64,000 bases of DNA from Marivita sp. (GCF_051251565.1 NZ_JBPOFB010000009.1:40108-104107); one strand, 5' to 3'; shown: positions 46,820 through 63,833, counted from the first letter of the stretch. The notes: generated from the letters alone by a model not told the origin. Program-made: numbers and translations.

Positions 46820-47198
46820 TGGTGCATGAGTTTTAAAAATGCTCGGATTTTGCAGAACGCGTGTTGAGCATTAAACCAGCTTGATAACGGTGGACTGGCT
46901 TTTTGTGACAGCAGCGGCCATAGGGTTAGCAGTTGGTGGAGTGTCCAGATTGCAAAATCGCGGCGCGCCACTGTCTTTGACCACTGGCGGACAGATACCC
47001 CACACCGCTGACGTTGCGCGCTCGTAACAGCCCCGCCTCTACCCAAATCCAGCGTCTCGATGACACTTAGGGCACGCGGAACTCCACAGTTTCGTCACAA
47101 AGCGCCCAACACGCAGACACAATGGTCCGCTATATCCGACAATTGAACCATGTTTCAGCACACGTTTGGTGCATCATGAATACATGCAAGGAGGCAAA

Positions 47199-48056: not shown

Positions 48057-48250
48057 CGAGGGCACTACCGCATTTGGACAAGTGCCGCCTTAAGGCACAG
48101 GATATGGCGCAGCATTATGTTGCGCCTTATCCACATCAAACACACCTCTGAAATCATTGATTCTTGCAATAAAACACAACTTGACGCAGGTTAATCGCAA
48201 TATCGGGCAAAAAGACCCAATCCTGAGGCGTGATCGGAAAGGCAGGTCAC

Positions 48251-49672
48251 ATGTACACGAGCAGTTCCTTCAAGGCCGCCCTGTTGGGCGCGGTCCTTGC
48301 CATTACTCCAGTGGCGCATGCAGCATTTGCTGAAACACTCCGCGTCATTCGAACAAATACAGAATCAACCCTGAACGTTCCGATGAACCGTGCGGTGGTG
48401 GTTGAAAGCGAAGTTCCGTTTGCAGAGCTGAGCATCGCCAACCCCTCCATTGCGGATATCTCATCGCTTTCAGAGCGCACGATTTATGTCCTCGGGAAAA
48501 CCCCGGGCACAACGACGCTGACCATCCTTGACGGGAATGGGCAGTTGATCACGAATGTGGACGTCACGGTCGCACCGGATTTGACCGAATTCAAAGAACG
48601 TCTTCGTCAGATTCTACCAGACGAAAAAATCGAAGTGCGCACGGCCAATGACGGGATCGTTCTTTCGGGAACGGTGTCGAGCACCATTCGCATGCAGCGC
48701 GCCCTTGACCTTGCATCGCGCTACGCACCCGAACGCGTATCGAACCTGATGTCGGTTGGTGGTGTTCAGCAGGTGATGCTGAAAGTCCGTTTTGCAGAGA
48801 TGCAGCGGTCTGTCTCCAAATCCCTCCAATCATCGCTTGCGACGGGCGGATCGGTTCTTGACGGCGACCTGGGTCTCGAACTTGGCACCGGCAATGCGGG
48901 CCCGTCGGCTGCGCTGGACAGCGTCGCAGACAAACTGCGATCGTCTGCGGATGCACAAAACGCGGTCCTGTTCGGCTTTAATGCCGGTGGTCTGGAAATC
49001 GGCATCCTTTTGGAAGCGTTGGAATCCAAAGGCGTTGTGCGCACCCTGGCAGAACCCAACCTGACATCCTTGTCGGGACAGGAAGCCAAGTTTCTGGCCG
49101 GTGGCGAATATCCCGTCCCCGTCGCCCAAGACAACGGTGCCATCGCAGTTGAATTCAAGCCCTTTGGCGTCGAGCTGAACTTCATCCCGCGTGTTCTGGA
49201 CGGCGATCTGATCAACCTCGAACTGGAAGCGGCCGTATCGTCAATTGACCCGGACAGCGGTGTCGACATTGGTGCCATTCGCATCGACGGCTTCCGCCGC
49301 CGCGAAACCCAGACCACGGTTGAGCTTCGGGACGGCGAAAGCTTTGCCATCGCCGGTCTGCTTCAGGACGATTTCCGTGACCTGAACGATCAGGTGCCAT
49401 GGCTTGGTGATATCCCAGTTCTCGGCGCGTTGTTCCGCAGTGCGGAATACCGGCGCGAACAATCCGAGCTGGTGATCATCATCACGCCGCATCTTGTCAC
49501 TCCGACACGCGGTGAAGCGCTTGCTTTGCCCACCGACCGTGTACGTCCCCCGACCGAAAAAGACCTGTTCCTCTTTGGACGCGTCGCCAGCGACTCGCGC
49601 AATTTGCGTGGCGCGGCTGGCGAAGTGGCCAAGCAGGACTTTAGCGGGTCCTACGGCTATGTGATGGATTGA
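48251..49672 (+). CDS. cpaC: Tad/Cpa pilus secretin CpaC (RcpA)
   Basis: Signal peptide. C-terminal secretin core: LAEPNLTSLSGQEAKFLAGGEYPVP...VPWLGDIPVLGALFRS...ELVIIITPHLV. Confidence 0.92.
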   Translation: MYTSSSFKAALLGAVLAITPVAHAAFAETLRVIRTNTESTLNVPMNRAVVVESEVPFAELSIANPSIADISSLSERTIYVLGKTPGTTTLTILDGNGQLITNVDVTVAPDLTEFKERLRQILPDEKIEVRTANDGIVLSGTVSSTIRMQRALDLASRYAPERVSNLMSVGGVQQVMLKVRFAEMQRSVSKSLQSSLATGGSVLDGDLGLELGTGNAGPSAALDSVADKLRSSADAQNAVLFGFNAGGLEIGILLEALESKGVVRTLAEPNLTSLSGQEAKFLAGGEYPVPVAQDNGAIAVEFKPFGVELNFIPRVLDGDLINLELEAAVSSIDPDSGVDIGAIRIDGFRRRETQTTVELRDGESFAIAGLLQDDFRDLNDQVPWLGDIPVLGALFRSAEYRREQSELVIIITPHLVTPTRGEALALPTDRVRPPTEKDLFLFGRVASDSRNLRGAAGEVAKQDFSGSYGYVMD

Positions 49673-49676
49673 AGCG

Positions 49677-50351
49677 ATGGCAGTTCAAAAAAATCTCCGT
49701 ATTCCCGCAGCCTTGACCGGCCTTGCCCTGCTTGCCGCCTGTGCAACCAGCGATCCGGTCTACAGCGCCTTCAATCGTGAAGCAGGTGCCTTGGTCGATC
49801 CCGGAAACTTTGGGGTTGCCACCATGAACAACGTGCAGATCATGAATGGCGAAAAGCGCTATACCTATGATTTATCGCAACGATTTGCCAGCGAAGTCAT
49901 GACCACGGTCAACTTTGCCTTCAACAGTGCCGTTCTCGACACCGGGGCAAAAGACACGTTGCGTGAACAGGCGAACTGGATCCGGCAATTTCCCGAAATC
50001 CACTTCCGCGTGTACGGGCACACCGACGCTGTTGGCAGCGAAGGCTACAACAAACGGCTTGGCCTGAACCGCGCACATGCGGTTGTGAACTTCCTTGCGT
50101 CGCAAGGTATCAGCAAGGACCGGCTTGAGGCGGTTGTCTCATTTGGGGAAACCCAGCCACTGATCGTGACCGAAGGCCGCGAACGCCGCAACCGGCGGAC
50201 CGTGACCGAGGTTTCGGGCTTTGTTGGGTCGCATCCTTCTGTCTTGGAAGGCAAATATGCCGAAATCATTTACCGCGAGTACGTGAACAGTGCCACACCC
50301 ACAATCGGGATCAGCGGCATTGAAGGCGGCGAATTCTCGACCTCTGAATAA
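49677..50351 (+). CDS. OmpA-family lipoprotein in the CpaD position
   Basis: Lipobox LALLAAC. OmpA C-terminal domain motifs: FAFNSAVL...VYGHTDAVGSEGYNKRLGLNRA...NRR. Confidence 0.85.
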   Translation: MAVQKNLRIPAALTGLALLAACATSDPVYSAFNREAGALVDPGNFGVATMNNVQIMNGEKRYTYDLSQRFASEVMTTVNFAFNSAVLDTGAKDTLREQANWIRQFPEIHFRVYGHTDAVGSEGYNKRLGLNRAHAVVNFLASQGISKDRLEAVVSFGETQPLIVTEGRERRNRRTVTEVSGFVGSHPSVLEGKYAEIIYREYVNSATPTIGISGIEGGEFSTSE

Positions 50352-50352
50352 A

Positions 50353-50378
50353 GGCACGGCCCCGCAAGGGGCCATGCC
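50353..50378 (+). other. Intra-operon GC-rich stem-loop with GNRA tetraloop
   Basis: GGCACGGCCCC-GCAA-GGGGCCATGCC is an 11-bp stem with one mismatch. It starts 2 nt after the OmpA-like stop and has no U-tract. Confidence 0.4.
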
Positions 50379-50535
50379 ACCGGCCTGAAATACCGTACAA
50401 TTTCGGTAATTCGGCCCCAATGTTGCCAAGTTTTCCGCCGAACTTCGGACCGTAGCAGTCCTTCCCGAGCGACTCGGGATTGGCCTTCACGATGCAGGCA
50501 AAACGCCGCTCGTGGATGTCGTGAAGTTAGAGGAA

Positions 50536-51786
50536 ATGAGGCACATGACGAGTATCCTTCCCAGCCCCCCGCAGCCGGCACCGCTTGTCGCGTGCACAAT
50601 CAGTCGGGATGTTCAGGAATTCGACCTCCTGATCGAAGACATGGAAGCTGTTCTGGGTGAAGCCTGGGGCGACCTTGGTTTTGACGAAGCCATGCACTTC
50701 TTTTCACAAGAAGAAGGCGAAGACCTTGAGTTCGTCGCTTTGGCCATCGACGCCGAGGATGAACCGAATGTGGATCACCTCTCCTCAATCATTGCTGCCG
50801 CAAAAGCGCGCGCGATCAAGGTTGTGTTGATTGCCCATGACGTGACGCCCTCGGCGTTGCATCATCTGCTGCGACAGGGCGCGGATGAATTTGTCCCCTA
50901 CCCGCTTCCCGAAGGCGAACTGGCCGCAGCCATCGACCGGATGCGCACGCCCGAAGCCCCCCGCGTGGTTGCTGGAAAGGAGGGCAAAAGTGTCAAGCTG
51001 TCCTCTGATGGGGACGGTGTGATCATCGCGGTGCAGGGCATGGCAGGCGGGTGCGGGGCCAGCACCTTTGCCACCAACTTGGCCTGGGAACTGGCGACTG
51101 TCACCAAAGAAAAGCCGCCTCGCGTGTGCATCATGGATCTTGGTCTGCAATTTGGTGCGGTGTCGACATATCTTGACGTGCAGCGCCGCGAAGCCGTGCT
51201 TGAACTGCTGTCAGACATCGATTCGATGGACGATGACACGTTTGGGCAAGCGCTCGTCACATTCGAAGAAAAGCTGCATGTCTTTACATCGCCAGCCGAT
51301 TTGCCGCCGCTCGACATTATTGGACAAACCGAAGTGCAGGCGCTTCTGGACACGGCATCGCGCCACTTTGACTTTGTGGTCGTGGATATGCCGCCCAGCC
51401 TCGTGCAGTGGTCTGAAACGGTGCTCTATGCCGCGCAGGTCTATTTCGGCGTGATCGAGCTCGACATGCGATCGGCACAGAACACGTTCCGGCTCAAACG
51501 GGCCTTGCAGGCCGAAGACCTGCCGTTCGAAAAGATCCGCTTTGTCCTGAACCGCGCCCCGAAATTCACCGACCTTCAGGGCAAAAGCCGCCTCAAGCGG
51601 ATGCAAGAAAGCCTTGATATCTCGATTGATCTGAATTTGCCCGATGGGGGCCGCGCCGTTGGCGAGGCCGGTGACCACGGTCAGCCCTTGGGCTTGCAAC
51701 AACCGAAAAACCCGCTTCGCAAGGAAATCGCCAAACTGGCGCAGTCGCTTTACGAAGTCGGCCGCTCTGATGCTGAAGCCGCCTGA
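50536..51786 (+). CDS. cpaE: Pilus assembly ATPase-like protein CpaE/TadZ (receiver-like N-domain plus MinD/ParA-like domain)
   Basis: IIAVQGMAGGCGASTFATNLAWELA is a deviant Walker A in a ParA/MinD-like fold, with VVVDMP as Walker B. The start is uncertain: candidates at 50512 (GTG), 50536 and 50545. Confidence 0.85.
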   Translation: MRHMTSILPSPPQPAPLVACTISRDVQEFDLLIEDMEAVLGEAWGDLGFDEAMHFFSQEEGEDLEFVALAIDAEDEPNVDHLSSIIAAAKARAIKVVLIAHDVTPSALHHLLRQGADEFVPYPLPEGELAAAIDRMRTPEAPRVVAGKEGKSVKLSSDGDGVIIAVQGMAGGCGASTFATNLAWELATVTKEKPPRVCIMDLGLQFGAVSTYLDVQRREAVLELLSDIDSMDDDTFGQALVTFEEKLHVFTSPADLPPLDIIGQTEVQALLDTASRHFDFVVVDMPPSLVQWSETVLYAAQVYFGVIELDMRSAQNTFRLKRALQAEDLPFEKIRFVLNRAPKFTDLQGKSRLKRMQESLDISIDLNLPDGGRAVGEAGDHGQPLGLQQPKNPLRKEIAKLAQSLYEVGRSDAEAA

Positions 51787-51797
51787 GGAGACCCGAT

Positions 51798-53240
51798 ATG
51801 TTTTCGCGTTACAAAAAGACGGCTGACGAACCGGTTGCGATCCCCAAGGCAGCCGCCCCCAAGGCGGCACCAGCAGCAAATTCGCCCGGCCCAGCCAAAG
51901 CTCTGCGCAGAGTTTTGCCGCCCAAAGCCGCGGTGGCGGAATCGGCGGATCGTGACAAGAAACGCAAGGAACGGCTCAGCGATATCAAGCTTGATCTGCA
52001 CCGCGCGTTGCTGGACAACCTCAACCTTGCCGCATTGGACAAGGCCACCGAGGGCGAGCTTAAGGAAGAGATCAACGCGATCATCACCGAGAGCCTTCAG
52101 GAAAAGGGAATGGTGCTCAACCGCGAAGAGCGCTCGGCCCTGAACCAGGAACTGTATGACGAGGTCAAGGGTCTTGGTCCGCTGGAAACCCTGCTAAAGG
52201 ACGAAACGGTCAGCGATATTCTTGTCAACGGCCCACATCAGATTTTTGTGGAACGCGAAGGCAAGCTGCAACTCAGCGATGTGACCTTCAAGGACGAACG
52301 CCACCTGATGCGGATCATCGACAAGATCGTGTCCGCTGTTGGGCGACGGGTCGATGAATCCAATCCGTATGTGGACGCCCGTTTGATGGACGGATCGCGT
52401 TTCAACGCGATGGTGCCACCGATTGCGGTAGATGGCTCTCTTGTCTCTATTCGTAAGTTCAAAACCGACAAGCTCAGCATCGACGATCTGGTTAATTTTG
52501 GCGCTTTCACCGAAGAAATGGCTGTTTATCTTCAGGCCGCCGTGGCGACCCGCCTGAACATCATCGTGTCTGGTGGTACGGGTTCGGGTAAGACGACGAC
52601 GTTGAACGCGCTGTCGTCCTTCATCGACGACAGCGAACGCATCCTGACCATTGAGGACACTGCGGAACTTCAGTTGCAGCAGTCCCATGTGGGCCGAATG
52701 GAAAGCCGACCCGCCAACGTTGAAGGCAAAGGCGCAGTCAGCCCGCGCGATTGTCTGAAGAACGCTTTGCGCATGCGCCCTGACCGGATCATCGTCGGGG
52801 AAACCCGTGGCGAGGAAGTCATCGACATGTTGCAGGCCATGAACACCGGCCACGACGGATCGATGACCACGATCCACGCCAACTCCGCCCGCGATGGTGT
52901 CAGCCGTCTGGAAAACATGATTGCGATGGCCGGGATCGAGATGCCGCTCAAGGCGATGCGCAGCCAGATTTCATCGGCTGTGAACCTGATCGTGCAGGCG
53001 TCACGTCTGCAAGACGGTTCTCGCCGCATGACGTCGATCACGGAAATCACCGGCATGGAAGGGGATGTCATCTCGATGCAAGAGATCTTCCGCTTTCAAC
53101 GCGTCGGCCTGACCCCGGAAAACAAGATCATCGGCCATTTCACCGCAACCGGTGTCCGTTCGAACTTTGCAGAACGCTTCAAGATGTGGGGCTACGACCT
53201 GCCCCCGTCGATTTATGAACCCTTCAACGGGAACCACTGA
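51798..53240 (+). CDS. cpaF: Tad secretion ATPase CpaF/TadA
   Basis: [16 protein letters not shown] Walker [11 protein letters not shown] Asp box, [12 protein letters not shown] Walker B, and [15 protein letters not shown] His box. Confidence 0.95.
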
Positions 53241-53242
53241 TT

Positions 53243-54211
53243 ATGACACTTAGCGCAGAACCCATTGTCTACGGCCTGATCTTCATTGCCGTCCTTGTGT
53301 TGGTCGAGGGCGTCTATCTTGTCGCGTTTGGCAAATCCATCAGCCTGAACAAACGCGTCAACCGCCGCCTTGAAATGCTCGACAAGGGGTCAAAGCGCGA
53401 CGAAGTGTTGGCCAAGCTCCGCAAGGAAATGGACCAGCACATGGCCTCGCGGGGGTTGCCGCTTTATTCGATCCTTGCAGACCGTGCCCAGAAGGCCGCG
53501 ATTGCCTTTACTCCCAAGCAGCTCATTCTTGTGATGATCGCTGTCAGCTTTGCAGCCTTTGTCGGCCTGTCGGTCGGTACAGAAGCCGGGCTTGCCGTAC
53601 GGATCGTGATGGGCATCGGGATGGGCGTGGGAGGGGTGTTTTTCTGGATTTCGTCCAAGGCCAACAAACGTCTTTCCTTGATCGAAGAACAATTGCCGGA
53701 TGCGGTGGAACTCATGGTGCGGTCATTGCGCGTGGGTCACCCGTTTTCGTCTGCGATTTCGATCGTATCAAAGGAAATCAAGGATCCTCTGGCAACCGAG
53801 TTCGGGATTATTGCCGACGAGTCCAGCTATGGCCGCGATATTGGTGACGCGCTTAAGGCAATGGCCGAACGTCTGGACATGCAGGATTTGCGGTTTCTCG
53901 CAGTGGCCGTGTCGATCCAGCAGCAGTCCGGGGGCAACCTTGCCGAAATCCTCGAGGGCCTGGCAAAGGTGATCCGTGCGCGGTTCCGTCTGTTCCGCCG
54001 TGTGAAAGCCATCACCGCAGAAGCCCAGTGGTCCGGCAAATTCTTGTCCGCCTTCCCGATTGGCGCGCTGATCGTCATTCAGTTGACCGATCCGAATTAC
54101 TACGACGAGGTTTTGGACCACCCATGGTTCATACCCGCCTGTTTCGTGGTTGGATCGTTTCTGGTCGTCAACCTTCTGGTGATGCGCACCCTTGTGAATA
54201 TCAAAGTCTGA
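53243..54211 (+). CDS. tadB: Type II secretion system F-family protein TadB
   Basis: 322 aa inner-membrane ORF with a T2SSF-like central domain, immediately after cpaF. Confidence 0.88.
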   Translation: MTLSAEPIVYGLIFIAVLVLVEGVYLVAFGKSISLNKRVNRRLEMLDKGSKRDEVLAKLRKEMDQHMASRGLPLYSILADRAQKAAIAFTPKQLILVMIAVSFAAFVGLSVGTEAGLAVRIVMGIGMGVGGVFFWISSKANKRLSLIEEQLPDAVELMVRSLRVGHPFSSAISIVSKEIKDPLATEFGIIADESSYGRDIGDALKAMAERLDMQDLRFLAVAVSIQQQSGGNLAEILEGLAKVIRARFRLFRRVKAITAEAQWSGKFLSAFPIGALIVIQLTDPNYYDEVLDHPWFIPACFVVGSFLVVNLLVMRTLVNIKV

Positions 54212-54221
54212 GGACCGGAAT

Positions 54222-55196
54222 ATGCAAGCTTTCAACCAATTCGCCTACACTCTTCTGGGCCCCGCCGGACCGATGATCATCATCGCGTCGCTGGGGTTGT
54301 TGCTGCTTGTGCTGGCGATCCCGATGTTCTTTCTGTCCCGGTCCAACCCGATGGACCGCCTGAACACTCAGGCCGGGCGCAATGCGCTTGACGCGCAAAC
54401 GCGCGCCGTGTTGCGCGACAAAAGGAAGAACGAAAAGCTTAATAAATACGCGCAATTCCTTGAACCGCAGGACGCAAAAGAACTGTCCGAAGTGCGGATG
54501 AAACTGTTGCGTGCCGGATACCGCACCAAGGACGCGGTTCAGGTCTACTACTTCGCGCAGTTCGCCCTGGGCATTGGTGGCCTGATCATCGGTGTGGCGT
54601 ATTTCATGCTTGTGATGGACCCATCCCAGGCAACCACCCAGCAAACGGTCATGTATACGCTTGGGCCGGGCGCTGCGGGTTATTACTTCCCGAAATACTG
54701 GATCACCAAGCGGGTCCAAACGCGGCAGGAAGAGATCGAAACCGGCTTTCCTGACAGTCTTGACATGATGCTTGTCTGCGTCGAAGCGGGGCAGTCCATG
54801 GACCAGTCCATTGTGCGCGTGGGCACCGAACTACGCGCCTCCTACCCCTCCCTTGCCGAGGAATTCGAACTGGTCAGCCACGAAATGAAGGCCGGCAAGG
54901 ACAAATCGGCTGTTCTGAATGACATGGGTGAACGCTGCGGGGTGCAGGACGTGATGTCCTTTGTCACCGTTCTCAACCAAAGCCAAAGCTTCGGCACCCC
55001 GATTTCTGACGCGCTTCGGGTTTATGCGGCAGAAATGCGTGACAAGCGGGTCATGCGGGCCGAAGAAAAGGCAAACAAGTTGCCAACCAAAATGACTTTG
55101 ACCACAATGATGTTCACCGTGCCGCCGCTGCTGATCATTCTTGTGGGTCCATCGGTTCTTGGCATTCAGAAACTGGGTGAAATGGGGGGGCCGTAA
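54222..55196 (+). CDS. tadC: Type II secretion system F-family protein TadC
   Basis: 324 aa ORF. FPDSLDMMLVCVEAGQS and RAEEKANKLPTKMT are typical of TadC. Confidence 0.88.
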   Translation: MQAFNQFAYTLLGPAGPMIIIASLGLLLLVLAIPMFFLSRSNPMDRLNTQAGRNALDAQTRAVLRDKRKNEKLNKYAQFLEPQDAKELSEVRMKLLRAGYRTKDAVQVYYFAQFALGIGGLIIGVAYFMLVMDPSQATTQQTVMYTLGPGAAGYYFPKYWITKRVQTRQEEIETGFPDSLDMMLVCVEAGQSMDQSIVRVGTELRASYPSLAEEFELVSHEMKAGKDKSAVLNDMGERCGVQDVMSFVTVLNQSQSFGTPISDALRVYAAEMRDKRVMRAEEKANKLPTKMTLTTMMFTVPPLLIILVGPSVLGIQKLGEMGGP

Positions 55197-55200
55197 CCCG

Positions 55201-55761
55201 ATGAAGCTTGGCCGCACCTTGGCCGTCGTGATCGCATTCGGAGTGACCGCCTGTGGACCGGGCGGTTTTTCCACGTCCGACGGTTCTGTTTTTGCCCCCA
55301 GCGTGGACCCAAGAGGTGCCGCTGTTGATCAATTGACGGTCGGCCACAGGCTGATGGCTGCGGGCGAACATGAACTCGCGCTCAGCTCATTTCAGCTTGC
55401 AGCGGCGGAACAGGGCCTGACCCCCGAAGTGATCACATCGCTAGGCTCTGCCAACCTCGCGCTTGGCCGCCTGAACCAGGCAGAAGACCTTTTGCGCCGC
55501 GCCATCAAAGACGATCCAGACAGCCCGGATGCTTGGAACAATCTTGGCGTTGTGTTGATCGAACAGGGCAAAACCCCCGAGGCCGCACAGACTTTTCAAC
55601 GGGCCTTCGCGCTCGACAATGGCGAAAGTGTTGCAATTCGGGATAATCTGCGCTTGGCTCTCGCAAAAATGGAAAATTCGCAGTATGATGCGACAATAGA
55701 ACAAGAATATAAACTTGTGCGGCGCGGCAGCGGTAGCTTCTTAATCCGTCCGACACAGTGA
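55201..55761 (+). CDS. TPR-repeat lipoprotein (TadD-like)
   Basis: MKLGRTLAVVIAFGVTACG lipobox. TPR repeats (AWNNLGVVLIEQGKTPEAAQTFQRAFALD). Confidence 0.8.
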   Translation: MKLGRTLAVVIAFGVTACGPGGFSTSDGSVFAPSVDPRGAAVDQLTVGHRLMAAGEHELALSSFQLAAAEQGLTPEVITSLGSANLALGRLNQAEDLLRRAIKDDPDSPDAWNNLGVVLIEQGKTPEAAQTFQRAFALDNGESVAIRDNLRLALAKMENSQYDATIEQEYKLVRRGSGSFLIRPTQ

Positions 55762-55788
55762 TGAGGCAGAGCAGTAGAGGACGCAAAA

Positions 55789-56649
55789 ATGCGCCATCCC
55801 TTTATCGTAACCCTGTGTGTAACAGGGGCGTTTGCACTTGCTGGGTGCGACCAACGTATTGATACCGAAGCTGTCGATCGGGAGTTTCAGGGCGTAAACG
55901 CCATTGATGGAACCAACCTGAACGAGGTGATGCTGACAGTATCGGACCCCAACGAGTCCGTATCCTATTTCCAAAGGGCCAGCAACGCCGCGCCCGAGCG
56001 TATGGACCTGCTCCGCAGCCTGGCCATTTCGCTTATTCGTGCCAGACGCAACACCGAAGGTGTGGCCGCATGGGCACGGGTGGTCGCGCATGAAGAGGCG
56101 ACCGACGATGACCGCGTCGAACTGGCAGATGCGCTGATCCGCAACAATGAATGGGACCGCGCTGAAACCGTTCTTAATGCGATCAATCCCACGCATGAAA
56201 CGTTCAAGCGCTATCGCCTTGAAGCGATGATCGCTGACAGCAATAAACAGTGGGACAAGGCCGACAGTTTCTATGAAATCGCCGTTGGCCTGACGACCAC
56301 CCCGGCATCGGTCCTGAACAACTGGGGCTTTTCCAAACTGACCCGTGGTGATTTTCCGGGGGCTGAACGCCTGTTCACTCAGGCGATCCAGAATGACAAC
56401 GACCTGTTCACCGCAAAGAACAACCTCGTGCTCGCGCGCGGGGCGCAGGGCAATTATGTTCTGCCCGTGGTGCCGATGACGCAGGTGGAACGCGCAGAGC
56501 TGCTGCATTCCATGGGGCTGGCAGCGGTCAAGCGCGGCGATGTCATCACCGGTCGCGGCTTGATGCGCGAAGCAATCGAAACCCATCCGCAGCATTTTGA
56601 GGCCGCTTCACGGAGCCTGAAGGCGCTTGAATCCTCGGTAGTGAACTGA
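55789..56649 (+). CDS. Second TPR-repeat lipoprotein
   Basis: Lipobox FALAGC. TPR-like repeats (NNWGFSKLTRGDFPGAERLFTQAIQND). Confidence 0.75.
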   Translation: MRHPFIVTLCVTGAFALAGCDQRIDTEAVDREFQGVNAIDGTNLNEVMLTVSDPNESVSYFQRASNAAPERMDLLRSLAISLIRARRNTEGVAAWARVVAHEEATDDDRVELADALIRNNEWDRAETVLNAINPTHETFKRYRLEAMIADSNKQWDKADSFYEIAVGLTTTPASVLNNWGFSKLTRGDFPGAERLFTQAIQNDNDLFTAKNNLVLARGAQGNYVLPVVPMTQVERAELLHSMGLAAVKRGDVITGRGLMREAIETHPQHFEAASRSLKALESSVVN

Positions 56650-56657
56650 GCCGCCCG

Positions 56658-57149
56658 ATGGATGTCTCGGCGTTTTCGGCATTGGTGTTTCTGCCTTTCG
56701 TGCTGCCTGTCTGCGTCTATGTCGCGTTTTCGGATATGCGCGACATGCGCATTCCGAACCAGATGGTCGTGCTTTTGTTCGGCATCTACGCGGTGGTCGG
56801 CCTGATCGCCCTGCCCTTTGATGCATATCTCTGGCGCTACCTGCACCTAGTCGTTGTGCTGGTCGCAGGCATTGCGTTGAATGCAGGCGGGATCATGGGC
56901 GCAGGCGATGCCAAATTCGCCGCCGCCGCCGCCCCCTTTATCCATGTGGGGGATATGCGGTTCCTGATGGCGCTGTTTGCCGCCAACATTCTGGCTGCGT
57001 TTGTGGCGCATCGCATCGGCAAACACACAGCTCTGCGCAAGATCGCTCCGCATTGGGCAAGCTGGACAAACCCCAAATTCCCCATGGGACTGACCCTTGG
57101 CGGGACATTGGCCATCTACCTTGCCTTGGGGGCGTGGTTTGGCAGGTGA
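56658..57149 (+). CDS. cpaA: A24-family prepilin peptidase CpaA/TadV
   Basis: 163 aa polytopic ORF with two catalytic Asp contexts, FSDMRDMRIPN and GAGDAKF. Confidence 0.85.
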   Translation: MDVSAFSALVFLPFVLPVCVYVAFSDMRDMRIPNQMVVLLFGIYAVVGLIALPFDAYLWRYLHLVVVLVAGIALNAGGIMGAGDAKFAAAAAPFIHVGDMRFLMALFAANILAAFVAHRIGKHTALRKIAPHWASWTNPKFPMGLTLGGTLAIYLALGAWFGR

Positions 57150-57244: not shown

Positions 57245-58549
57245 ATGAACATGCAAACAAGCGCTGTCATGGCGCCTCCTCCGCCCAAGCGATTGGAAGA
57301 CATGCGGCTTCAGCCGGTGATGATGCGCGACATCATCCTCAAGACGATCTTCCGCAAGAACGTCTCAACGGCAACCGCAATTGCTCAGTCTGTATGCCTG
57401 CCTGTGCCCATCACCCAAGAGCTGATCGACTACGCGCGCGGTCAGTTGCTGCTTGAGGCCACAGGCACCCTGAACGCGAATAACGGGTCAGAGATGGGCT
57501 ATCAGCTCACCGATGCGGGCAAGGCCCGTGCGCTGGATGCGTTGGCGCAATCCGAGTACTATGGTGCGATGCCGGTCCCGCTTGAGGTCTATTCCGAACA
57601 GATCAAACGGCAGTCGATCCGCAACATCCACATCTCGCGGCAACAGCTGACCGATGCGATGGGGCACCTTATTTTGCCGCCTGCCCTTCTGGGCGATCTT
57701 GGTCCTGCCGTTGGCGCGGGACGCTCGATCCTGATGTACGGCCCTCCGGGCAACGGGAAATCGTCGATCTCTAACGGCATCCGCGACGCGATGGGGGACA
57801 AGATTTATATCCCCCACGCCATCGAATACGCTGGTCAGGTGATCACCGTCTATGATCCCATTGTGCACAGCGCTGCCGAAACCGCGTCAAGCGCAAGCGG
57901 CCTGCGCCTGACCAACCGCTTTGACACCCGCTACGTTCTGTGCGCGCGCCCCACCGTCATCACCGGTGGTGAATTGTCTCTTGATATGCTCGACCTTGTC
58001 TATAACCCGACAGCGCGCACCTATCAGGCGCCGCTACAACTCAAATCCACCGGCGGCATCTTTATCGTCGACGACCTTGGTCGTCAGGCCGAACCGCCGC
58101 AAAAGCTGGTCAACCGCTGGATTGTTCCGCTGGAGGAATCCCGCGATATCCTTGCGTTGCAGTCAGGCGAAAAATTCGAAGTGCCGTTTGACACGCTGGT
58201 TATTTTCTCGACCAACTTCCACCCGAACGAGATCTTTGACCAGGCCGCCCTGCGCCGGATCTTTTTCAAGATCAAAATCGACGGGCCAGATCAGCAGAAC
58301 TTTCTCAAGATTTTCTCAATGGTGGCCAAGAAGAAGAAAATGCAGCTCTGTGAAACATCGCTGATCCACCTTCTCAAGACCAAGTATCCGACCATCGGCA
58401 ACATCTACGCCAACTACCAACCGGTCTTCCTGATCGACCAGATGATCGCGGTCTGCGACTTTGAAGGGTGGCCCTATAAGATGACCCCCGAACTGGTGGA
58501 CCGTGCCTGGGCGAACATGTTCGTGAAGGACGAAAAGATTGTGAAATAA
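57245..58549 (+). CDS. AAA+ ATPase of unknown function with N-terminal winged-helix-like region
   Basis: 434 aa ORF. Walker A ILMYGPPGNGKSS, Walker B IFIVDDLG, sensor-1-like VIFSTN, and ALRRI (Arg finger/sensor 2 candidate). Same strand as the tad genes, 95 nt after cpaA. Confidence 0.8.
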   Translation: MNMQTSAVMAPPPPKRLEDMRLQPVMMRDIILKTIFRKNVSTATAIAQSVCLPVPITQELIDYARGQLLLEATGTLNANNGSEMGYQLTDAGKARALDALAQSEYYGAMPVPLEVYSEQIKRQSIRNIHISRQQLTDAMGHLILPPALLGDLGPAVGAGRSILMYGPPGNGKSSISNGIRDAMGDKIYIPHAIEYAGQVITVYDPIVHSAAETASSASGLRLTNRFDTRYVLCARPTVITGGELSLDMLDLVYNPTARTYQAPLQLKSTGGIFIVDDLGRQAEPPQKLVNRWIVPLEESRDILALQSGEKFEVPFDTLVIFSTNFHPNEIFDQAALRRIFFKIKIDGPDQQNFLKIFSMVAKKKKMQLCETSLIHLLKTKYPTIGNIYANYQPVFLIDQMIAVCDFEGWPYKMTPELVDRAWANMFVKDEKIVK

Positions 58550-58718
58550 GCGTGACGAGGCGGAGTCGGCCCCACGAAAACTGTGGACCCGTCAACGCAT
58601 CCGGCACCTTGCGGCTACACCGCGTTCCCCATCACGGGCAACAGCGTCCAGTCTTGGGCAAAAAACCAAGATTTGCCCTTGACGGCACGCGCCCCCCTTC
58701 GTACTCACGCGACGGTCC

Positions 58719-58795
<77 letters not shown>

Positions 58796-58984
58796 TTAAT
58801 CCTTTGGATATCTGCACATTTTGCGCGAAACAGCACTGTGTGCTCCCGGGCTCGCATAGCCAACACAATACCATCCAGAGTTCCCAGCCATGCATAAATC
58901 GGGCTAAAGCGCGTACCCCTACGGCTTTGCCCGCGCGGTTGCGAAATCACCCCAGACAACCCCGCGATCAATCAACGACCCAGA

Positions 58985-59008
58985 GTGTGCCTGACGCCTC
59001 AGGCACAC
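58985..59008 (-). terminator. Perfect 10-bp hairpin 3 nt downstream of the fusion-gene stop
   Basis: GTGTGCCTGA-CGCC-TCAGGCACAC. There is no clear U-tract on either strand. Confidence 0.45.
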
Positions 59009-59011
59009 GAA

Positions 59012-62000
59012 CTAAAGCCGGGCCAATTGCTCGATTTTTTGTGCGTCTTCGGTAGTTGGGGCGACAACCACGATGGCTTGCACGTCACGCCGCAACATCA
59101 AAGCCTTCGCACGCGCTTCTAAATCCACCGCACATAAGGCCTGCGCATGCCCCTTACCGTCCAGCGCGTCTTGAGCACACAACAACACCGCATTCAGACC
59201 GGACAGTCGCAATTGATCCCATTGAGCCCGCGCGCGCGACAGCGCCTGTTCACCGCCCGTGTGAACATGGATCGGAATGCGGCCCATGTTCACCAATATC
59301 CGCTCAAGATATTCTGAGAGATGCCGTTTCGAAATGTCACCGCCGCCCAGCAAAGGCGCAAAGTTGATTTCGTTGATCGCTGCCCCTGTGGCATGCCAGG
59401 GCTGCGTGATATCCGTACTGATAAGATCCACACCAGCAACGTCCAAGCCAAACAGGTTTGCCACGGCAATTGCCAAACGCGTGTTCTCTGGGTGAATTGT
59501 GTCCGTGACGTCTTCGTCCACCCCGCCCCAAGCGGTCGTCTCGATCCTGCGCAGCGGCACGAAGTTTCCTGCCATGGGAACAGCGTCAGGGCTTAGACCC
59601 GCATTCTTCAAACTGATCTGTGCCAGATCATCCACAGGTCTGATCCCAGAACGCTTCCAGGGTGGCGCGGCCTCTTGAACGGCACATTCCGCATCAACCA
59701 ATGCTGTGACGGTTGAAACACCATTGGCATACACTCCGATTGGAAGGCGTTGGACAGCGTATAACAGCGCGCCACGGACCACGAACAATCGATGGCAGGT
59801 CCCCGCGATCTGCCGTTCGACGATGACCGCCTTACCGGGCGAACATTCATGCGCGCGCTGAAACGCAGAATTCAGCTCTGCTGCGCCCACATCGACACTC
59901 ACGCCTTCCCCGCGCTCAAGATCCGCTGGTTTGACAACGACCGGATAGCCAAACCGCTCAGAGACATCCTGCGCCGCCTCGGGTGTGGACACTTGGACGT
60001 GATCCGGCGCAGGCAACCCGGCCTCGCGCAAAAGCGCCGCCGACACCAGTTTGTTCTTGGACCATGTCGCGCCAAACGCGCTGTCCTGATCCGTGGTGCT
60101 GCGATGAATACGGCACCCGTGCGCGCCAAGACCCAACTGGTACACGCCATTGGGCAACGGGAAATACGGAATACCCAAATCATACGCGGCGCGCAGCACT
60201 TGAAATGTCGATTTACCCTTCGCAGTCGCGTCCGAAAAAGGCGTCACAACCTCGTTTGTAATCGCTTGGAAAAACTGTGCCCGTTCAGTTGGGGCCTCAG
60301 GTCGTTTGCCCCGCACCCAAAGCGCAACCTTGAATGCCACCTTGAACACCTTATCTACCAAATCGCCGGAAACCAGCGTCGCGCGCGGCATGAGAAAAGC
60401 AACCTCCAAGGTATCCTGAGTACCTGGCGCGCGCTTAAACCCGACAATCTCGAAACGATCAAAGATTGGTACACGCAGGGTTTGCAAAAAACATACCGTC
60501 AGATCAAGCACCGACGAAAACCATGCATAAGCCTCATTCTGCGACCGGTTGCGCGCCTCTTGGGCCGTCAGCGGTGCCAGATCGGCGTCAAGGCACGCGA
60601 TCCACGCCACAAGGTCCTCTGCCTTGACATCGGTGGGAAGCTTAAAGCTGACCGACCGGATAGGTTTGGCTTTTTGCGGTTCAGCGGTCTTGGGTTTGGC
60701 TGGCGAGGGGGCCTTTTGCTCAAGTCGGTCCCATTTTTTGCGAAAGACCTCCGCAAAGGCACTACGCGGCAATTTTCCTTGTTCATTGATTGGAAGCCGT
60801 TCGACGAATTCGACATCATATAAGGCATGTTTTCCAATCTGGTCACGGACTGACTGCACTAATTCTTTTGCGTCAAGCCGCGCACTGGCCGCAACAACAA
60901 CCAACGCCACTGGTAGATCCTGAAGTTGTTTGTGAGGCAATGGCCTTACTGCCACATCAAGGACACCTGATACCTGCCGGAGACACTTTTCTACTTCTGC
61001 TGGGAACAGATTTACACCGCTGACAATCATCATATCATCAGCGCGCCCAAGATGAGCCAATTGCCCATCTGGCATAAAATACCCGACGTCGCCCGGATAA
61101 TACCAGCCATCCCGAAATGCTTTGGCCGTTGCTTCAGGGTCGCCATGATAGCCGTCAATTTGCGTATCTGTCTTAATGCGGATCAAACCCTGCTTCCCGC
61201 TTGGAACAAGGTTTCCAAAGTCATCAACAATTTCTACATCTACATCATCGCAAATATGCCCAACACTTTTCAGATTTTGAAAGACATCTTTAGGACGCGC
61301 AATACTAACAATGCTACTTTCGTTGCTACCGTAAATGATATGAACTTGTGGCGTCAGGCATGATGCAGCTCTCTTTCTTAGATCAGCTGAGATTGTGGCT
61401 GAGCTTAAAAATAGAATGTGCAATTTTGAAAATATGGGAGTATCATGACTTGAAGTTTGGGAAATTATTTTCTCTGCATGATATGGCGTAGCATATATGA
61501 TGTTTACCTTTTCCTCTTCTACTTTCTGGCACAGTTTTTCGATACTTACCCTTGAGGTATGAATTGCATCACAAAACAGAATAGCCTTTAGATTTATTCT
61601 TTTTCCCGCGAGGAAATGAATTCCAATCATTGAATGAATTGTATATCTTTCATTTCCACTTCTTTGGAAATGTTGTCGTGCAGTGCGGCGCATTTCTGTT
61701 TCATGCGTACATGGAATAATTTTTGGCTGTCCCGTCGATCCTGAGCCATTTGCGAAAATCCAAGGTTGCGCCGGGTCGACGCTGGCCGGACGCAAAACAC
61801 CATCGGATTGGGCGGCCTGCGCAAGCGAATACGATATGTCGTATATTTCGGCCAAAGCATCTGCCCCAGAATATTCATCCCCCGAAAGCACCTTTGCGCA
61901 TCCTGTCATTTGGAAAATTCGGTCACGTTGGGCCTCTGGCATGGACCGCGGCACGCTGATGACGGTTCCACCAACATGCGCGATGGCCAGTGTTGCGATC

Positions 62001-62194
62001 CAATGGTCTACAGGATCGTCCAGCCGGATTGCCACAACATCGCCCAGCAACACGCCTGCCTTGTCCAAACCCGCCGAAACGGTCGCCACACGACGCCCCA
62101 ATTCCGCGTAAGTCAGGTCACCTGTTGCCGCGTAGATCGCGGTTGCATCGGGCCGAAGATCAACTTGATCACACAAGATTTGGGTAATGTTCAT
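59012..62194 (-). CDS. Fusion protein: ANL-superfamily adenylate-forming domain, Pro/Lys/Ala linker, then a cyanophycin-synthetase-like N domain and ATP-grasp (G) domain
   Basis: 1060 aa ORF with GGAG 6 nt upstream of the ATG. ANL motifs: ANGSGSTGQPK, IIYGSNE, YYPGDVG, GRADDMMIVSGVNLFPAEVE, GKLPR. The C-terminal half is collinear with CphA1: LGIPYFPL..YQLGLGAHGCRIHRSTTD, GYPVVVKPADLERGEGVSV, IVERQIAGTCHRLFVV, VDEDVTDTIHPEN, GLDVAGVDLISTDI, INEINFAPL. Confidence 0.85.
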   Translation of the reverse strand: MNITQILCDQVDLRPDATAIYAATGDLTYAELGRRVATVSAGLDKAGVLLGDVVAIRLDDPVDHWIATLAIAHVGGTVISVPRSMPEAQRDRIFQMTGCAKVLSGDEYSGADALAEIYDISYSLAQAAQSDGVLRPASVDPAQPWIFANGSGSTGQPKIIPCTHETEMRRTARQHFQRSGNERYTIHSMIGIHFLAGKRINLKAILFCDAIHTSRVSIEKLCQKVEEEKVNIIYATPYHAEKIISQTSSHDTPIFSKLHILFLSSATISADLRKRAASCLTPQVHIIYGSNESSIVSIARPKDVFQNLKSVGHICDDVDVEIVDDFGNLVPSGKQGLIRIKTDTQIDGYHGDPEATAKAFRDGWYYPGDVGYFMPDGQLAHLGRADDMMIVSGVNLFPAEVEKCLRQVSGVLDVAVRPLPHKQLQDLPVALVVVAASARLDAKELVQSVRDQIGKHALYDVEFVERLPINEQGKLPRSAFAEVFRKKWDRLEQKAPSPAKPKTAEPQKAKPIRSVSFKLPTDVKAEDLVAWIACLDADLAPLTAQEARNRSQNEAYAWFSSVLDLTVCFLQTLRVPIFDRFEIVGFKRAPGTQDTLEVAFLMPRATLVSGDLVDKVFKVAFKVALWVRGKRPEAPTERAQFFQAITNEVVTPFSDATAKGKSTFQVLRAAYDLGIPYFPLPNGVYQLGLGAHGCRIHRSTTDQDSAFGATWSKNKLVSAALLREAGLPAPDHVQVSTPEAAQDVSERFGYPVVVKPADLERGEGVSVDVGAAELNSAFQRAHECSPGKAVIVERQIAGTCHRLFVVRGALLYAVQRLPIGVYANGVSTVTALVDAECAVQEAAPPWKRSGIRPVDDLAQISLKNAGLSPDAVPMAGNFVPLRRIETTAWGGVDEDVTDTIHPENTRLAIAVANLFGLDVAGVDLISTDITQPWHATGAAINEINFAPLLGGGDISKRHLSEYLERILVNMGRIPIHVHTGGEQALSRARAQWDQLRLSGLNAVLLCAQDALDGKGHAQALCAVDLEARAKALMLRRDVQAIVVVAPTTEDAQKIEQLARL

Positions 62195-62429
62195 CTGTCA
62201 CTCCATAATGAACTTGGCATACGCGCCATCCGCTGCGTCTTGCCCGAAACAGGTGCGCTGAATTGGAACATGAATTTTGTGCCGGCGCAGGTCAGCAAAA
62301 TCACCGGAGACAAGACCGGCGCAAGCCTCTCGGTTCTTTGGGAAACGAAAGAGAATACCCAGCGCATTTGCGTGTAAAAATTACCGAAAGAGAGCGTGTG
62401 ATGCTTGACCAGCCACCGACACAGGTCAC

Positions 62430-62472
62430 GTAACGCGTTACCGAATTAGTTTAATCCGACCAAAACGGTAAC
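62430..62472. promoter_or_regulatory. Candidate operator cluster upstream of paaA (GTAAC/GTTAC half-sites)
   Basis: Perfect 12-nt palindrome GTAACGCGTTAC (62430-62441). Its GTTACCG arm is repeated inverted as CGGTAAC at 62466-62472. It lies about 70-110 nt upstream of the paaA ATG. Confidence 0.35.
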
Positions 62473-62542
62473 ACTATCCTTGCCCGACTCGCAGCAATCG
62501 CATAGGGTTTCAGCATCAGAACTTCACACAGGCGGTCAAGCC

Positions 62543-63520
62543 ATGTACGCACAGATGATCACCTCAGAAGCAACGGTCGAAGACCCCGACAAGCTGGCCG
62601 CGTTTCAGGGCCGGATTGACGCCGGAGACAAGATTGAACCCAAGGACTGGATGCCCGAAGGGTACCGCAAGACCTTGATCCGCCAGATCGGTCAACACGC
62701 CCATTCCGAAATCGTTGGTCAATTGCCCGAAGGCAACTGGGTCACCCGCGCGCCGACGCTTGAGCGCAAGGCGATCCTGCTCGCCAAGGTTCAGGACGAG
62801 GCGGGGCATGGGCTTTACCTGTACGGCGCCGCCGAAACGCTGGGGGTCAGCCGGGATGAGTTGACCGAGATGCTGCTGGATGGACGCATGAAATACAGCT
62901 CTATCTTCAATTATCCGACGCTGACATGGGCCGATATGGGCGCGGTGGGCTGGCTGGTCGACGGGGCCGCGATCATGAACCAGGTGCCGCTGCAACGCAC
63001 CAGCTACGGCCCCTATTCCCGCGCGATGATCCGCATCTGCAAGGAAGAGTCGTTCCACCAACGGCAGGGCTATCACATCATGATGAAGATGGCACAAGGC
63101 ACGCCCGCGCAAAAGAAGATGGCTCAGGATGCGCTCAACCGTTTCTGGTATCCGTCGCTCATGATGTTCGGCCCGTCAGACAAGGATTCGGTCCATTCCG
63201 CGCAGTCGATGCGCTGGAAGATCAAGATGAACACCAATGACGAGCTGCGCCAGAAATTCGTCGATCAGACCGTTCCGCAAGCGGAATATCTTGGGCTGAC
63301 CGTGCCAGACAAGACGCTACGCTGGAACGAGGCAAAAGGCAGTTATGATTTCGCCGAACCTGATTGGGCCGAATTCTTCGACGTGATCCAAGGCAATGGC
63401 CCTTGCAACACCGAACGCCTCGCCGCGCGCAACAAAGCGTGGGACGATGGCGCATGGGTGCGCGAGGGGCTGATGGCCCATGCCGCGAAGAAACGCGCGG
63501 CGAAAGTGGCGGCGGAATAA
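62543..63520 (+). CDS. paaA: 1,2-phenylacetyl-CoA epoxidase subunit A
   Basis: MYAQMITSE start. Di-iron ferritin-like motifs ([27 protein letters not shown]). The ORF-track TTG start at 62480 is probably an extension. Confidence 0.92.
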
Positions 63521-63548
63521 TTGTGCATCTGTCGGAAAGGCTTGCGTC

Positions 63549-63833
63549 ATGAAACACGAATGGCCCCTCTGGGAAGTTTTCATCCGCGGTCAGCACGGGC
63601 TGAACCATCGTCACGTGGGCAGCCTGCACGCCCCCGATGCCGAGATGGCGCTCAAGAACGCCCGTGATGTCTACACCCGCCGCAACGAAGGTGTGTCGAT
63701 CTGGGTGGTTGAGGCCGCGCATATCACTGCGTCTTCGCCATCTGACAAAGGCCCGCTATACGAGCCGTCCGAAAGCAAGGTCTACCGCCACCCCACCTTC
63801 TTCGACATCCCCGACGAGGCGGGGCATATGTGA
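63549..63833 (+). CDS. paaB: 1,2-phenylacetyl-CoA epoxidase subunit B
   Basis: MKHEWPLWEVFIRGQHGLNHRHVGSLHAPDAEMALKNARDVYTRR is the highly conserved PaaB sequence. 94 aa. Confidence 0.92.
   Translation: MKHEWPLWEVFIRGQHGLNHRHVGSLHAPDAEMALKNARDVYTRRNEGVSIWVVEAAHITASSPSDKGPLYEPSESKVYRHPTFFDIPDEAGHM

Follow-up and report, generated by a model that had tools for sequence, protein, structure and literature searches.

Here, we analysed a gene on a 64,000-nucleotide stretch of DNA from Marivita sp. (GCF_051251565.1, NZ_JBPOFB010000009.1:40108-104107). This whole stretch is referred to as the window in the following, and all positions are counted from its first letter. A preliminary description of the same DNA, made from the sequence alone, had read the gene as an enzyme in which an adenylate-forming domain of the ANL type (acyl-CoA synthetases, adenylation domains of nonribosomal peptide synthetases (NRPSs) and luciferases) is fused to a module resembling cyanophycin synthetase (CphA). 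The gene, hereafter the ligase gene, is one open reading frame (ORF) at 59012..62194 on the minus strand. It encodes 1060 amino acids and starts with ATG, and the GGAG located 6 nucleotides 5' of the start codon is its ribosome-binding site. Matches to Pfam and NCBIfam models and to CphA structures, all far beyond chance, confirmed the fusion. The AMP-binding families PF00501/PF13193 and ATP-grasp/cyanophycin synthetase matches were found as expected, and all named motifs as well as the Pro/Lys/Ala-rich linker turned out to lie within about one residue of the positions given earlier. From the N- to the C-terminus of the protein, the gene is organised as follows:

60725..62194, minus strand: ANL (adenylate-forming) domain, residues 1-490, with a large N-terminal and a small C-terminal subdomain (Pfam, motifs, Foldseek)
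60662..60724, minus strand: flexible Pro/Lys/Ala-rich linker, residues 491-511, of low predicted confidence and variable among homologues
60239..60661, minus strand: N-like domain, residues 512-652, in the place of the N domain of CphA but without the Cx19HxxEH metallopeptidase motif (assigned at the level of the fold)
59348..60238, minus strand: ATP-grasp G domain of the cyanophycin-synthetase type, residues 653-949, with the catalytic set kept and the specificity residues changed
59012..59347, minus strand: vestigial M (Mur-ligase-like) stub, residues 950-1060 plus stop codon, a beta-alpha-beta unit without ATP P-loop

The ligase gene is real, intact and maintained under selection. Its DNA recurs with 100% identity over the whole length in two further public assemblies, together with the same paa neighbours. 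Comparison with a 99% identical relative revealed 15 synonymous and 11 non-synonymous differences, corresponding to a per-site ratio of non-synonymous to synonymous differences (pN/pS) of 0.23. An assembly or frameshift artefact is ruled out by the identical DNA in the two additional assemblies and by 40 fused homologues. A public gene call of 632 amino acids (P0242), which starts at ligase residue 429 and belongs to the same 90% cluster, turned out to be a mis-call of the gene caller on a contig (locus L175, Logan SRR34144900) that is identical to window positions 58712-62580. It seems to have split the ORF at the AT-rich segment described below, so that database copies of the ligase family may be under-called as unfused.

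Domains and active sites of the ligase

In the ANL half, Pfam places AMP-binding (PF00501) at residues 10-350 (E 7e-37) and AMP-binding_C (PF13193) at residues 400-474 (E 4e-10). The core motifs occur in the proper order within a two-subdomain fold, as is characteristic of ANL enzymes: A3 ANGSGSTGQPK (148-158), A5 IIYGSNE (286-292), A7 YYPGDVG (365-371), A8 GRADDMMIVSGVNLFPAEVE (383-402) and A10 GK (473-474), the latter with the catalytic lysine K474. Residues S151, G152, T154, G155, E292, D369, R384 and K474 do not vary among 27 fused homologues. Foldseek matched this half to MenE, McbA and feruloyl-CoA synthetase with template modelling (TM) scores of 0.7-0.88 on the target. In NRPSs, Asp235 of motif A4 binds the alpha-amino group of the amino-acid substrate. 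We aligned 14 family sequences with 10 NRPS adenylation domains, five of which show the Asp (P0045, P0063, P0040, P0041, P0043); in the family, the column is never Asp (L, V, S, Y, Q, A, T or P), and the acid used by the ANL domain is probably not a standard alpha-amino acid. The A4 helix of the family conserves F/Y194-x3-K198-x-R200. This pattern may hint at an anionic substrate and was discarded as too weak for a substrate prediction. One part of the ANL domain stands out by its composition:

61200..61800, minus strand: AT-rich, divergent ANL segment, approximately residues 131-330 (from A3 to past A5, with the pocket helix of A4)

The GC content of this segment is 0.37-0.40 compared to 0.59 for the window, and across residues 201-300 identity to relatives is 0.20-0.30, compared to 0.45 among the relatives themselves. 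The segment could be a recombined or re-specified part of the substrate pocket. Relative to the 99% identical sequence it shows 8 synonymous and 3 non-synonymous differences, indicating purifying selection; with all motifs intact as well, decay of the ANL half was rejected. A milder GC dip at the same ANL position was observed in three other loci (L086, L005, L001). Members of the same ANL clade also occur without an ATP-grasp part, either as tandem double-ANL proteins or with an N-terminal SnoaL/DUF4440-like domain (P0028, P0029, P0030, P0031; P0028 corresponds to locus L092).

The linker between the halves (KAPSPAKPKTAEPQKAKP, residues 494-511) varies in length and sequence among homologues. 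Residues 491-509 are the sole segment of the full-length AlphaFold2 model with a predicted local distance difference test score (pLDDT) below 50. Pfam detected neither a peptidyl carrier protein (PF00550) nor a condensation domain in the ligase, and within residues 485-660 no column holds Ser in at least 60% of the 27 fused homologues. A carrier domain hidden in residues 491-660 was thus rejected, also because the disordered linker leads straight into the N-like domain. With both the carrier domain and Asp235 absent, the ligase is, judged by these features, not an NRPS module.

The second half was matched to cyanophycin synthetases by several routes. The NCBIfam model PRK14016 (cyanophycin synthetase) aligns residues 653-948 with profile positions 152-448 of 871 (E 9e-62, 209 bits, cut-off 877), and TIGR02068 reaches 192 bits against a cut-off of 850. 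Among solved structures, residues 159-457 of CphA1 (7wac) match ligase residues 655-949 with E 1e-39 and CphA2 (8fxh, 7ta5) follows with E 1e-35, while a profile of the ligase family matches TeCphA1 with E 1e-69. Pfam reports only weak, generic ATP-grasp families at residues 715-930 (RimK, CPSase_L_D2, Dala_Dala_lig_C) and no match on residues 512-680 and 950-1060. The fold, the conserved Lys, the Mg-binding Asp/Glu/Asn and the catalytic Arg identify the module as an ATP-grasp enzyme. Given the domain boundaries of TeCphA1 (N 1-161, G 162-487; PMC9427784), the block detectable by sequence, residues 653-949, is essentially the G domain.

Structure prediction extended this likeness beyond the G domain. 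The full-length AlphaFold2 model, built with the 27 fused homologues, has a mean pLDDT of 87 and a predicted TM score (pTM) of 0.54. A model of residues 511-1060 built with 60 family members reaches a pLDDT of 92.7 and a pTM of 0.90, with the M stub at a pLDDT of about 90. With this 550-residue half as query, Foldseek aligned CphA1 structures over 564-579 columns (TM on query 0.59-0.65) and CphA2 over 541-574 columns (7ta5: 541 columns, TM on query 0.63), whereas D-Ala-D-Ala ligases as ordinary ATP-grasp enzymes align over only about 280 columns (TM on query about 0.3). The additional columns imply that residues 512-652 and 950-1060 have counterparts in CphA as well. At the C-terminal end, the family profile continues past the end of the G domain (TeCphA1 487) and reaches the first strand of the M domain of CphA1: the family pattern GRIPvevfvGGeaA pairs with CphA1 GRIPILSVTGTNGKTT, so that the strand is kept and GG-x-x-A stands where CphA1 has the P-loop TGTNGKT. 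None of 60 family members has GxxGK[ST] near the C-terminus, and none of the 60 has the HxxEH of the CphA1 N domain, which is the motif of its peptidase site (PMC9262961). In CphA2, an active G domain lies between an N domain without catalytic function and an M domain that is truncated and inactive (PMC10273328), and in the model the C-terminal half of the ligase has the same N-G-M' layout.

These results refine the preliminary description. Its statement that neither a carrier nor a condensation domain is present holds, and the comparison of predicted and solved structures that it had proposed did return CphA1 over almost the entire C-terminal half. Its reading of this half as the end of the N domain plus the G domain was right about CphA and too narrow in scope, as the conserved block is G and the flanks match CphA N and the start of M. 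Similarly, a functional Mur-ligase domain is indeed missing, and a vestige of it without P-loop remains at residues 950-1060.

To compare the active sites, contact residues were taken from structures and mutants of TeCphA1 (PMC9427784) and StCphA2 (PMC10273328) and counted in the 27 fused plus 60 further members of the family (87 sequences in total); the alignments of TeCphA1 with the ligase are ungapped around these residues. The following positions are kept:

TeCphA1 K261, ligase K755: ATP-grasp Lys; 87/87
TeCphA1 R309, ligase R802: acyl-phosphate and oxyanion; 87/87
TeCphA1 D431 and E450, ligase D923 and E942: Mg ligands; 87/87
TeCphA1 N452, ligase N944: conserved beside the Mg ligands; 87/87
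TeCphA1 R390, ligase R882: no role assigned in TeCphA1; 87/87
TeCphA1 S166, ligase S662: part of GxST; 87/87
TeCphA1 R323, ligase R816: contacts the incoming substrate; 86/87

Four positions are replaced:

TeCphA1 N394 (CphA2 N393), reads the carboxylate of the incoming Asp: Glu885; 87/87
TeCphA1 E215 (CphA2 D212), salt bridge to the side chain of the chain-end Arg: Arg or Lys in 64/87; Thr710 in the ligase
TeCphA1 P165, crevice holding the Arg of the second-to-last unit: Lys661; 80/87
TeCphA1 H267, P-loop His stabilising the acyl-phosphate: Arg761; 85/87

Mutant data are available for some of these residues in CphA2, where N393A is inactive, R389 (the counterpart of R390) lies in a putative beta-Asp-Arg site with about 50% activity left in R389A, and the GxST motif contacts the second-to-last unit of the chain (PMC10273328). 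Taken together, both halves of the ligase look catalytically competent. The substrate-contact positions are, on these counts, still under selection, with charges reversed compared to cyanophycin synthetases. Such a reversal suggests, by homology with CphA1 and CphA2, that the incoming unit carries a positive group and the donor or growing chain a negative one, the opposite of cyanophycin. Cyanophycin itself is an unlikely product, since the catalytic residues are kept while those reading Asp and Arg are replaced.

Among the characterised enzymes, CphA2 (7ta5, 8fxh/8fxi) is similar to the C-terminal half in the lack of HxxEH in its N domain, in the Glid and G-omega inserts of its ATP-grasp G domain and in the truncation and inactivity of its M domain. 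Module size (about 550-640 amino acids), Arg308/309, the Mg ligands and GxST are likewise shared. In contrast to CphA2, the ligase carries an N-terminal ANL domain, has Glu for N393 and Arg, Lys or Thr for D212 in its family, and belongs to a family that is not confined to cyanobacteria; sequence similarity between the two is confined to the G domain, with about 22% identity in the fold alignment. CphA1 (7wac, 7lg5, 7lgm, 7lgn) is the best match of residues 653-949 in both sequence and fold, and it also combines two different ATP-dependent ligase sites and an N domain on one chain. The second site of the ligase, however, is an N-terminal ANL domain working through an acyl-adenylate and not a C-terminal Mur-ligase working through an acyl-phosphate. 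Its M part is a stub of about 110 residues without P-loop, its N domain has no primer-generating Cx19HxxEH site, the residues recognising Asp and Arg are replaced, and only positions 152-448 of the PRK14016 model are matched. We therefore rejected the assignment as a true cyanophycin synthetase, given scores below the curated cut-offs, the lack of an active M domain and the replaced specificity residues.

Distribution and genomic context of the family

A search with the full protein yielded 26 further full-length fused proteins with 32-53% identity and one with 99%. Their names in the source databases are generic, such as "AMP-binding protein" for the fused protein of Roseicyclus mahoneyensis (WP_109671133), or "cyanophycin synthetase" and "D-alanine-D-alanine ligase-like ATP-grasp enzyme" in entries from JGI. 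The C-terminal half alone retrieved at least 848 proteins with E <1e-10, mostly of 550-640 amino acids and named "hypothetical protein" or "ATP-binding protein"; by these matches, it is a large unnamed stand-alone family. With hidden Markov models of both halves, 98 loci of the C-terminal half from genome and metagenome scans were classified: 40 are fused, 15 have a family-type ANL as a separate gene in view, and in 43, often on short contigs, no ANL is in view. Genome loci of the family are mostly proteobacterial. The description of the enzyme as an orphan thus applies to its neighbourhood in the window, while the architecture is common.

In a neighbour-joining tree of the C-terminal halves, the fused forms do not group apart but are thoroughly mixed with the unfused ones, and fusion and fission thus occurred repeatedly. 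Such a pattern is a classic signature of two proteins working together. The separate genes occur in different arrangements: ANL and C-half 20 nucleotides apart in L090; C-half followed by an overlapping ANL, i.e. in reverse order, in L019; ANL, two other genes, C-half and a second, divergent C-half in Thauera aminoaromatica S2 (L009); one ANL with three C-half paralogues in L010; and two ANLs with two C-half genes in L093. In a marine/aquatic sub-clade, a divergent ANL (497 amino acids), a short-chain dehydrogenase (255 amino acids) and a CphA-like module (617 amino acids) follow each other in eight loci (L102 2466-6603, L105 1182-5319, L106, L100, L096, L104, L165, L169). A second, more divergent CphA-like paralogue, about 35% identical over the ATP-grasp core, was observed beside the main one in about 12 loci (L003 4645-6429, L006 13807-15726, L009 12044-13828, L098 2760-4721, L107 1764-3467, L134 5441-7672 and others), and such pairs suggest a two-ligase version of the system. 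Further neighbours are restricted to few lineages. An isochorismatase-aldehyde dehydrogenase fusion stands beside ANL and CphA-like genes in two loci (L090 4665-9791, L093 8001-17917), the latter with a sulfate-activation set nearby (adenylylsulfate kinase, a PAPS_reduct-family gene and a GTP_EFTU-family GTPase). SapC occurs in two loci, and TctC was judged a likely chance neighbour.

No characterised member turned up in these searches, no curated family model or specific source name for the family was found, and our literature search returned no paper on a fusion of an ANL domain with a CphA-type ATP-grasp module ("CphA3" in the literature is a beta-lactamase). The preliminary description had likewise not recognised the architecture as a characterised enzyme. 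It had also named outcomes that would speak against its reading, and the results went the other way throughout: the C-terminal half gives strong matches to CphA, two further assemblies contain the identical ORF and fused homologues number in the dozens, and no characterised member was found.

Within the window, the ligase gene stands alone, convergent with a gene for a P-loop protein and divergent from paaA. Between the ligase gene and paaA lies the following region, in which no convincing sigma-70 match was found:

62195..62479, no strand: intergenic region common to the two divergent genes, holding the ribosome-binding site of the ligase gene

The genes paaA and paaB (phenylacetate catabolism) occupy 62480-63833 on the plus strand, with the start of paaA at 62480, 285 nucleotides from the start codon of the ligase gene; this neighbourhood was encountered in no other locus of the family. 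On the other side, the P-loop protein (434 amino acids, 57245-58549, plus strand) shows the Walker-A sequence GPPGNGKS and directly follows a Tad pilus locus. It matches no Pfam family above threshold and has weak NCBIfam similarity to the anti-phage ATPase IteA and to CdvC. The Tad/Flp pilus locus (47166-57149, plus strand) looks complete: CpaB-, CpaC-, CpaD-, CpaE-, TadB- and TadC-like ORFs were assigned by eye from the translations, and Pfam matched a T2SSE ATPase (CpaF-like), a TPR protein and an A24 prepilin peptidase. The immediate neighbours of the ligase gene are thus Tad pilus genes, the P-loop protein and paaA/paaB, and none of them is a cyanophycinase, a gene that was not sought across the window as a whole. 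Elsewhere within the 64 kb, neither half has a paralogue. The GC content of the ligase gene (0.53) is lower than that of the window (0.59), which leaves room for a horizontal origin; insertion by a mobile element found no support, with neither flanking repeats nor a plasmid match.

Possible chemistry and products

ANL enzymes first adenylate a carboxylate. The acceptor of the acyl group is then a thiol or, without any thiol intermediate, an amine, as in the amide-bond synthetases McbA, CfaL and CysC. ATP-grasp ligases activate their carboxylate by phosphorylation for attack by an amine, and the G domain of CphA does so at the C-terminus of the growing chain. We propose that the ligase is a carrier-free amide ligase employing both chemistries, which builds an acylated or branched peptide and not cyanophycin; the balance of the evidence tips modestly in favour of this proposal. 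One polypeptide would then hold two independent ATP-dependent ligase sites and need no carrier protein. The ANL head would convert a free carboxylic acid to an acyl-adenylate and pass the acyl group directly to an amine, while the CphA2-type module would phosphorylate the C-terminal carboxylate of a peptide-like chain and couple it with an incoming amino acid through the amino group of the latter. Tethered by the flexible linker, both heads could act on the same molecule. The ANL head may hence supply a second amide bond on the product of the G module, the role of the lost Mur-ligase domain in cyanophycin synthetase 1, as suggested by the lack of a carrier, by the repeated occurrence of both modules as fused or adjacent genes and by the loss of the M domain. 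Acylation paired with an ATP-grasp step has precedents in CysC/CysD and in Ngg, both described below. The product would be an acylated or branched peptide, oligomer or polymer. That the ANL head transfers directly to an amine and that both heads serve one product is inferred, as are the charge logic and the status as oligomer or polymer. The earlier suggestion of a carrier-independent synthetase of amide bonds or pseudo-peptides distinct from cyanophycin thus appears reasonable and is strengthened by the replaced contact residues, although it is still an interpretation.

Several observations weigh against the proposal. The nearest solved relatives of the ANL half (residues 13-478) are acyl-CoA synthetases, with PRK06187, FadD3 and feruloyl-CoA synthetase as best NCBIfam and PDB matches, and the acceptor could be CoA instead of an amine; its top fold matches include the amide synthetase McbA and CoA ligases alike, and no sequence signature parts the two. 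The pocket region of this ANL domain is atypically divergent, and at the E215 equivalent the ligase has Thr710 and not the Arg/Lys of most relatives. AlphaFold2 gives no confident packing of the ANL half on the CphA-like half (pTM 0.54). At least four loci (L013, L014, L089, L091) with at least 8 kb of flank on each side have no family-type ANL, and in all 43 of the 98 loci show none; the ATP-grasp module thus probably works without a linked ANL, and the ANL step may be optional or peripheral. Neighbour clustering, with 22 and then 100 loci, detected no generally conserved partner and hence gave no pointer to a pathway. Finally, no characterised homologue was found, and the chemistry is read throughout from homologous positions.

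But what might such a two-headed enzyme make? One rather speculative answer, to which we assign a low probability, is an "inverse cyanophycin", a branched poly-amino acid made by the ligase and its split-gene relatives. In this scenario, the G domain would extend a cationic backbone from a diamino acid (e.g. lysine, ornithine, diaminobutyrate or diaminopropionate) read by the invariant Glu885, and the ANL domain would acylate each side-chain amine, with the resulting anionic chain end read by Lys661, Arg761 and the Arg/Lys at E215. The ANL domain would stand in for the lost Mur-ligase domain, the roles of donor and acceptor being exchanged, and iterative acylation after each addition would explain the basic pocket for the chain end. 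The retained N-like domain and M stub and the conservation at the contact to the second-to-last unit favour such an iterative version. A one-shot or stepwise version is favoured by clusters with multiple ligases and by N-acetylglutaminylglutamine synthetase (Ngg), a fused precedent that makes a dipeptide.

Without any polymerisation, the ligase could be a synthetase of short N-acyl peptides, a possibility that we take seriously and still judge to be on the doubtful side. The ANL domain would N-acylate one amino acid, the ATP-grasp module would add one more, and the product, for example an N-acyl dipeptide, might serve as compatible solute, signal or antibiotic precursor. A precedent exists in dapdiamide biosynthesis, in which the adenylate-forming enzyme DdaG makes the first amide and the ATP-grasp enzyme DdaF extends the C-terminus. 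The order of CysC (an ANL amide synthetase) and then CysD (ATP-grasp) in cystargolide biosynthesis fits as well (PMC11427300). Like the route proposed for the ligase, both systems are carrier-free and pair acylation with ATP-grasp extension; they differ from it in consisting of separate proteins with small ATP-grasp enzymes of the L-amino-acid-ligase type instead of a CphA-type N-G-M' module, and the likeness drawn here is one of logic. In Ngg, N-acylation and a CphA/GshF-type ATP-grasp peptide ligase are united in one polypeptide, and its published function, N-acetylation of glutamine and formation of a peptide bond, agrees with this explanation (PMC8070244). So does the domain order of the Ngg model TIGR03103, with the ATP-grasp part at positions 265-511 of 547, which matches ligase residues 682-932 (E 1.5e-34, 119 bits, cut-off 569). 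The acylating parts differ: the Ngg homologue of P. aeruginosa, PA3460, is annotated as a GNAT-family acetyltransferase and N-acetylglutaminylglutamine amide (NAGGN) costs one acetyl-CoA (PMC8070244), whereas the ligase has no Pfam match to GNAT and carries an ANL domain expected to activate a free acid with ATP. Loci combining two to three divergent ATP-grasp paralogues with one to two ANLs (L010, L093, L003, L006) resemble a system with one ligase per bond. On the other hand, the ligase keeps a full CphA-type N-like domain and an M stub, which simple dipeptide ligases do not have, the conserved GxST (S662 in 87/87, K661 in 80/87) suggests a donor longer than one residue, and the similarity to CphA (209 bits) exceeds that to Ngg (119 bits).

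The two halves might also have unrelated activities, with the ANL domain as an ordinary acyl-CoA synthetase of catabolism or lipid metabolism and the fusion serving co-expression only. CoA ligases as best NCBIfam and PDB matches, the paa operon next door and the many C-half genes without an ANL nearby speak for this explanation, which we nevertheless regard as improbable: the same ANL clade is fused or adjacent to the C-half recurrently across lineages, the paa neighbourhood is peculiar to this locus, and the double-ANL proteins of the clade were judged untypical of housekeeping CoA ligases. Least probable, in our view, is a modifier of proteins or cell-surface polymers that adds residues, in the case of a protein at its C-terminus, in the manner of RimK or LysX and an acyl cap through the ANL domain. 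LysX, ArgX, RimK-family enzymes and PsnB do appear among the lower-ranked fold matches, and envelope genes were seen nearby, namely the Tad pilus genes in the window, an exopolysaccharide cluster (L089), ESPR autotransporters (L003, L010), bactofilin and an M23 peptidase (L001) and a FemAB-like gene (L005). Such neighbours recur in a few loci at most, no conserved gene for a carrier or target protein stands beside the family, and the similarity to CphA is far above that to RimK or LysX.

Among the amino-acid polymerases that work without a template, cyanophycin synthetases are the best understood, and they are of industrial interest. Our analysis adds an unnamed sister family that keeps a CphA2-like scaffold with its substrate-reading residues replaced in a conserved manner, and in more than half of the loci examined the CphA-like module is fused or adjacent to an adenylate-forming ligase. 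The carrier-free two-headed ligase that we propose is directly testable, with a single chain of soluble type and named strains with fused (Roseicyclus mahoneyensis) and split (Thauera aminoaromatica S2) genes. If the two heads cooperate, they would provide a new way to peptides or polyamides that needs no ribosome, carrier protein or template and would unite the two main ATP-activation chemistries in one protein. An inverse cyanophycin, if true, would be a new class of bacterial storage or surface polyamide, made by the first known polymerase to switch between acyl-phosphate and acyl-adenylate chemistry on a single chain. Freshwater and marine bacteria commonly carry members of the family, and its product could matter for their nitrogen storage, osmoprotection or surface chemistry.

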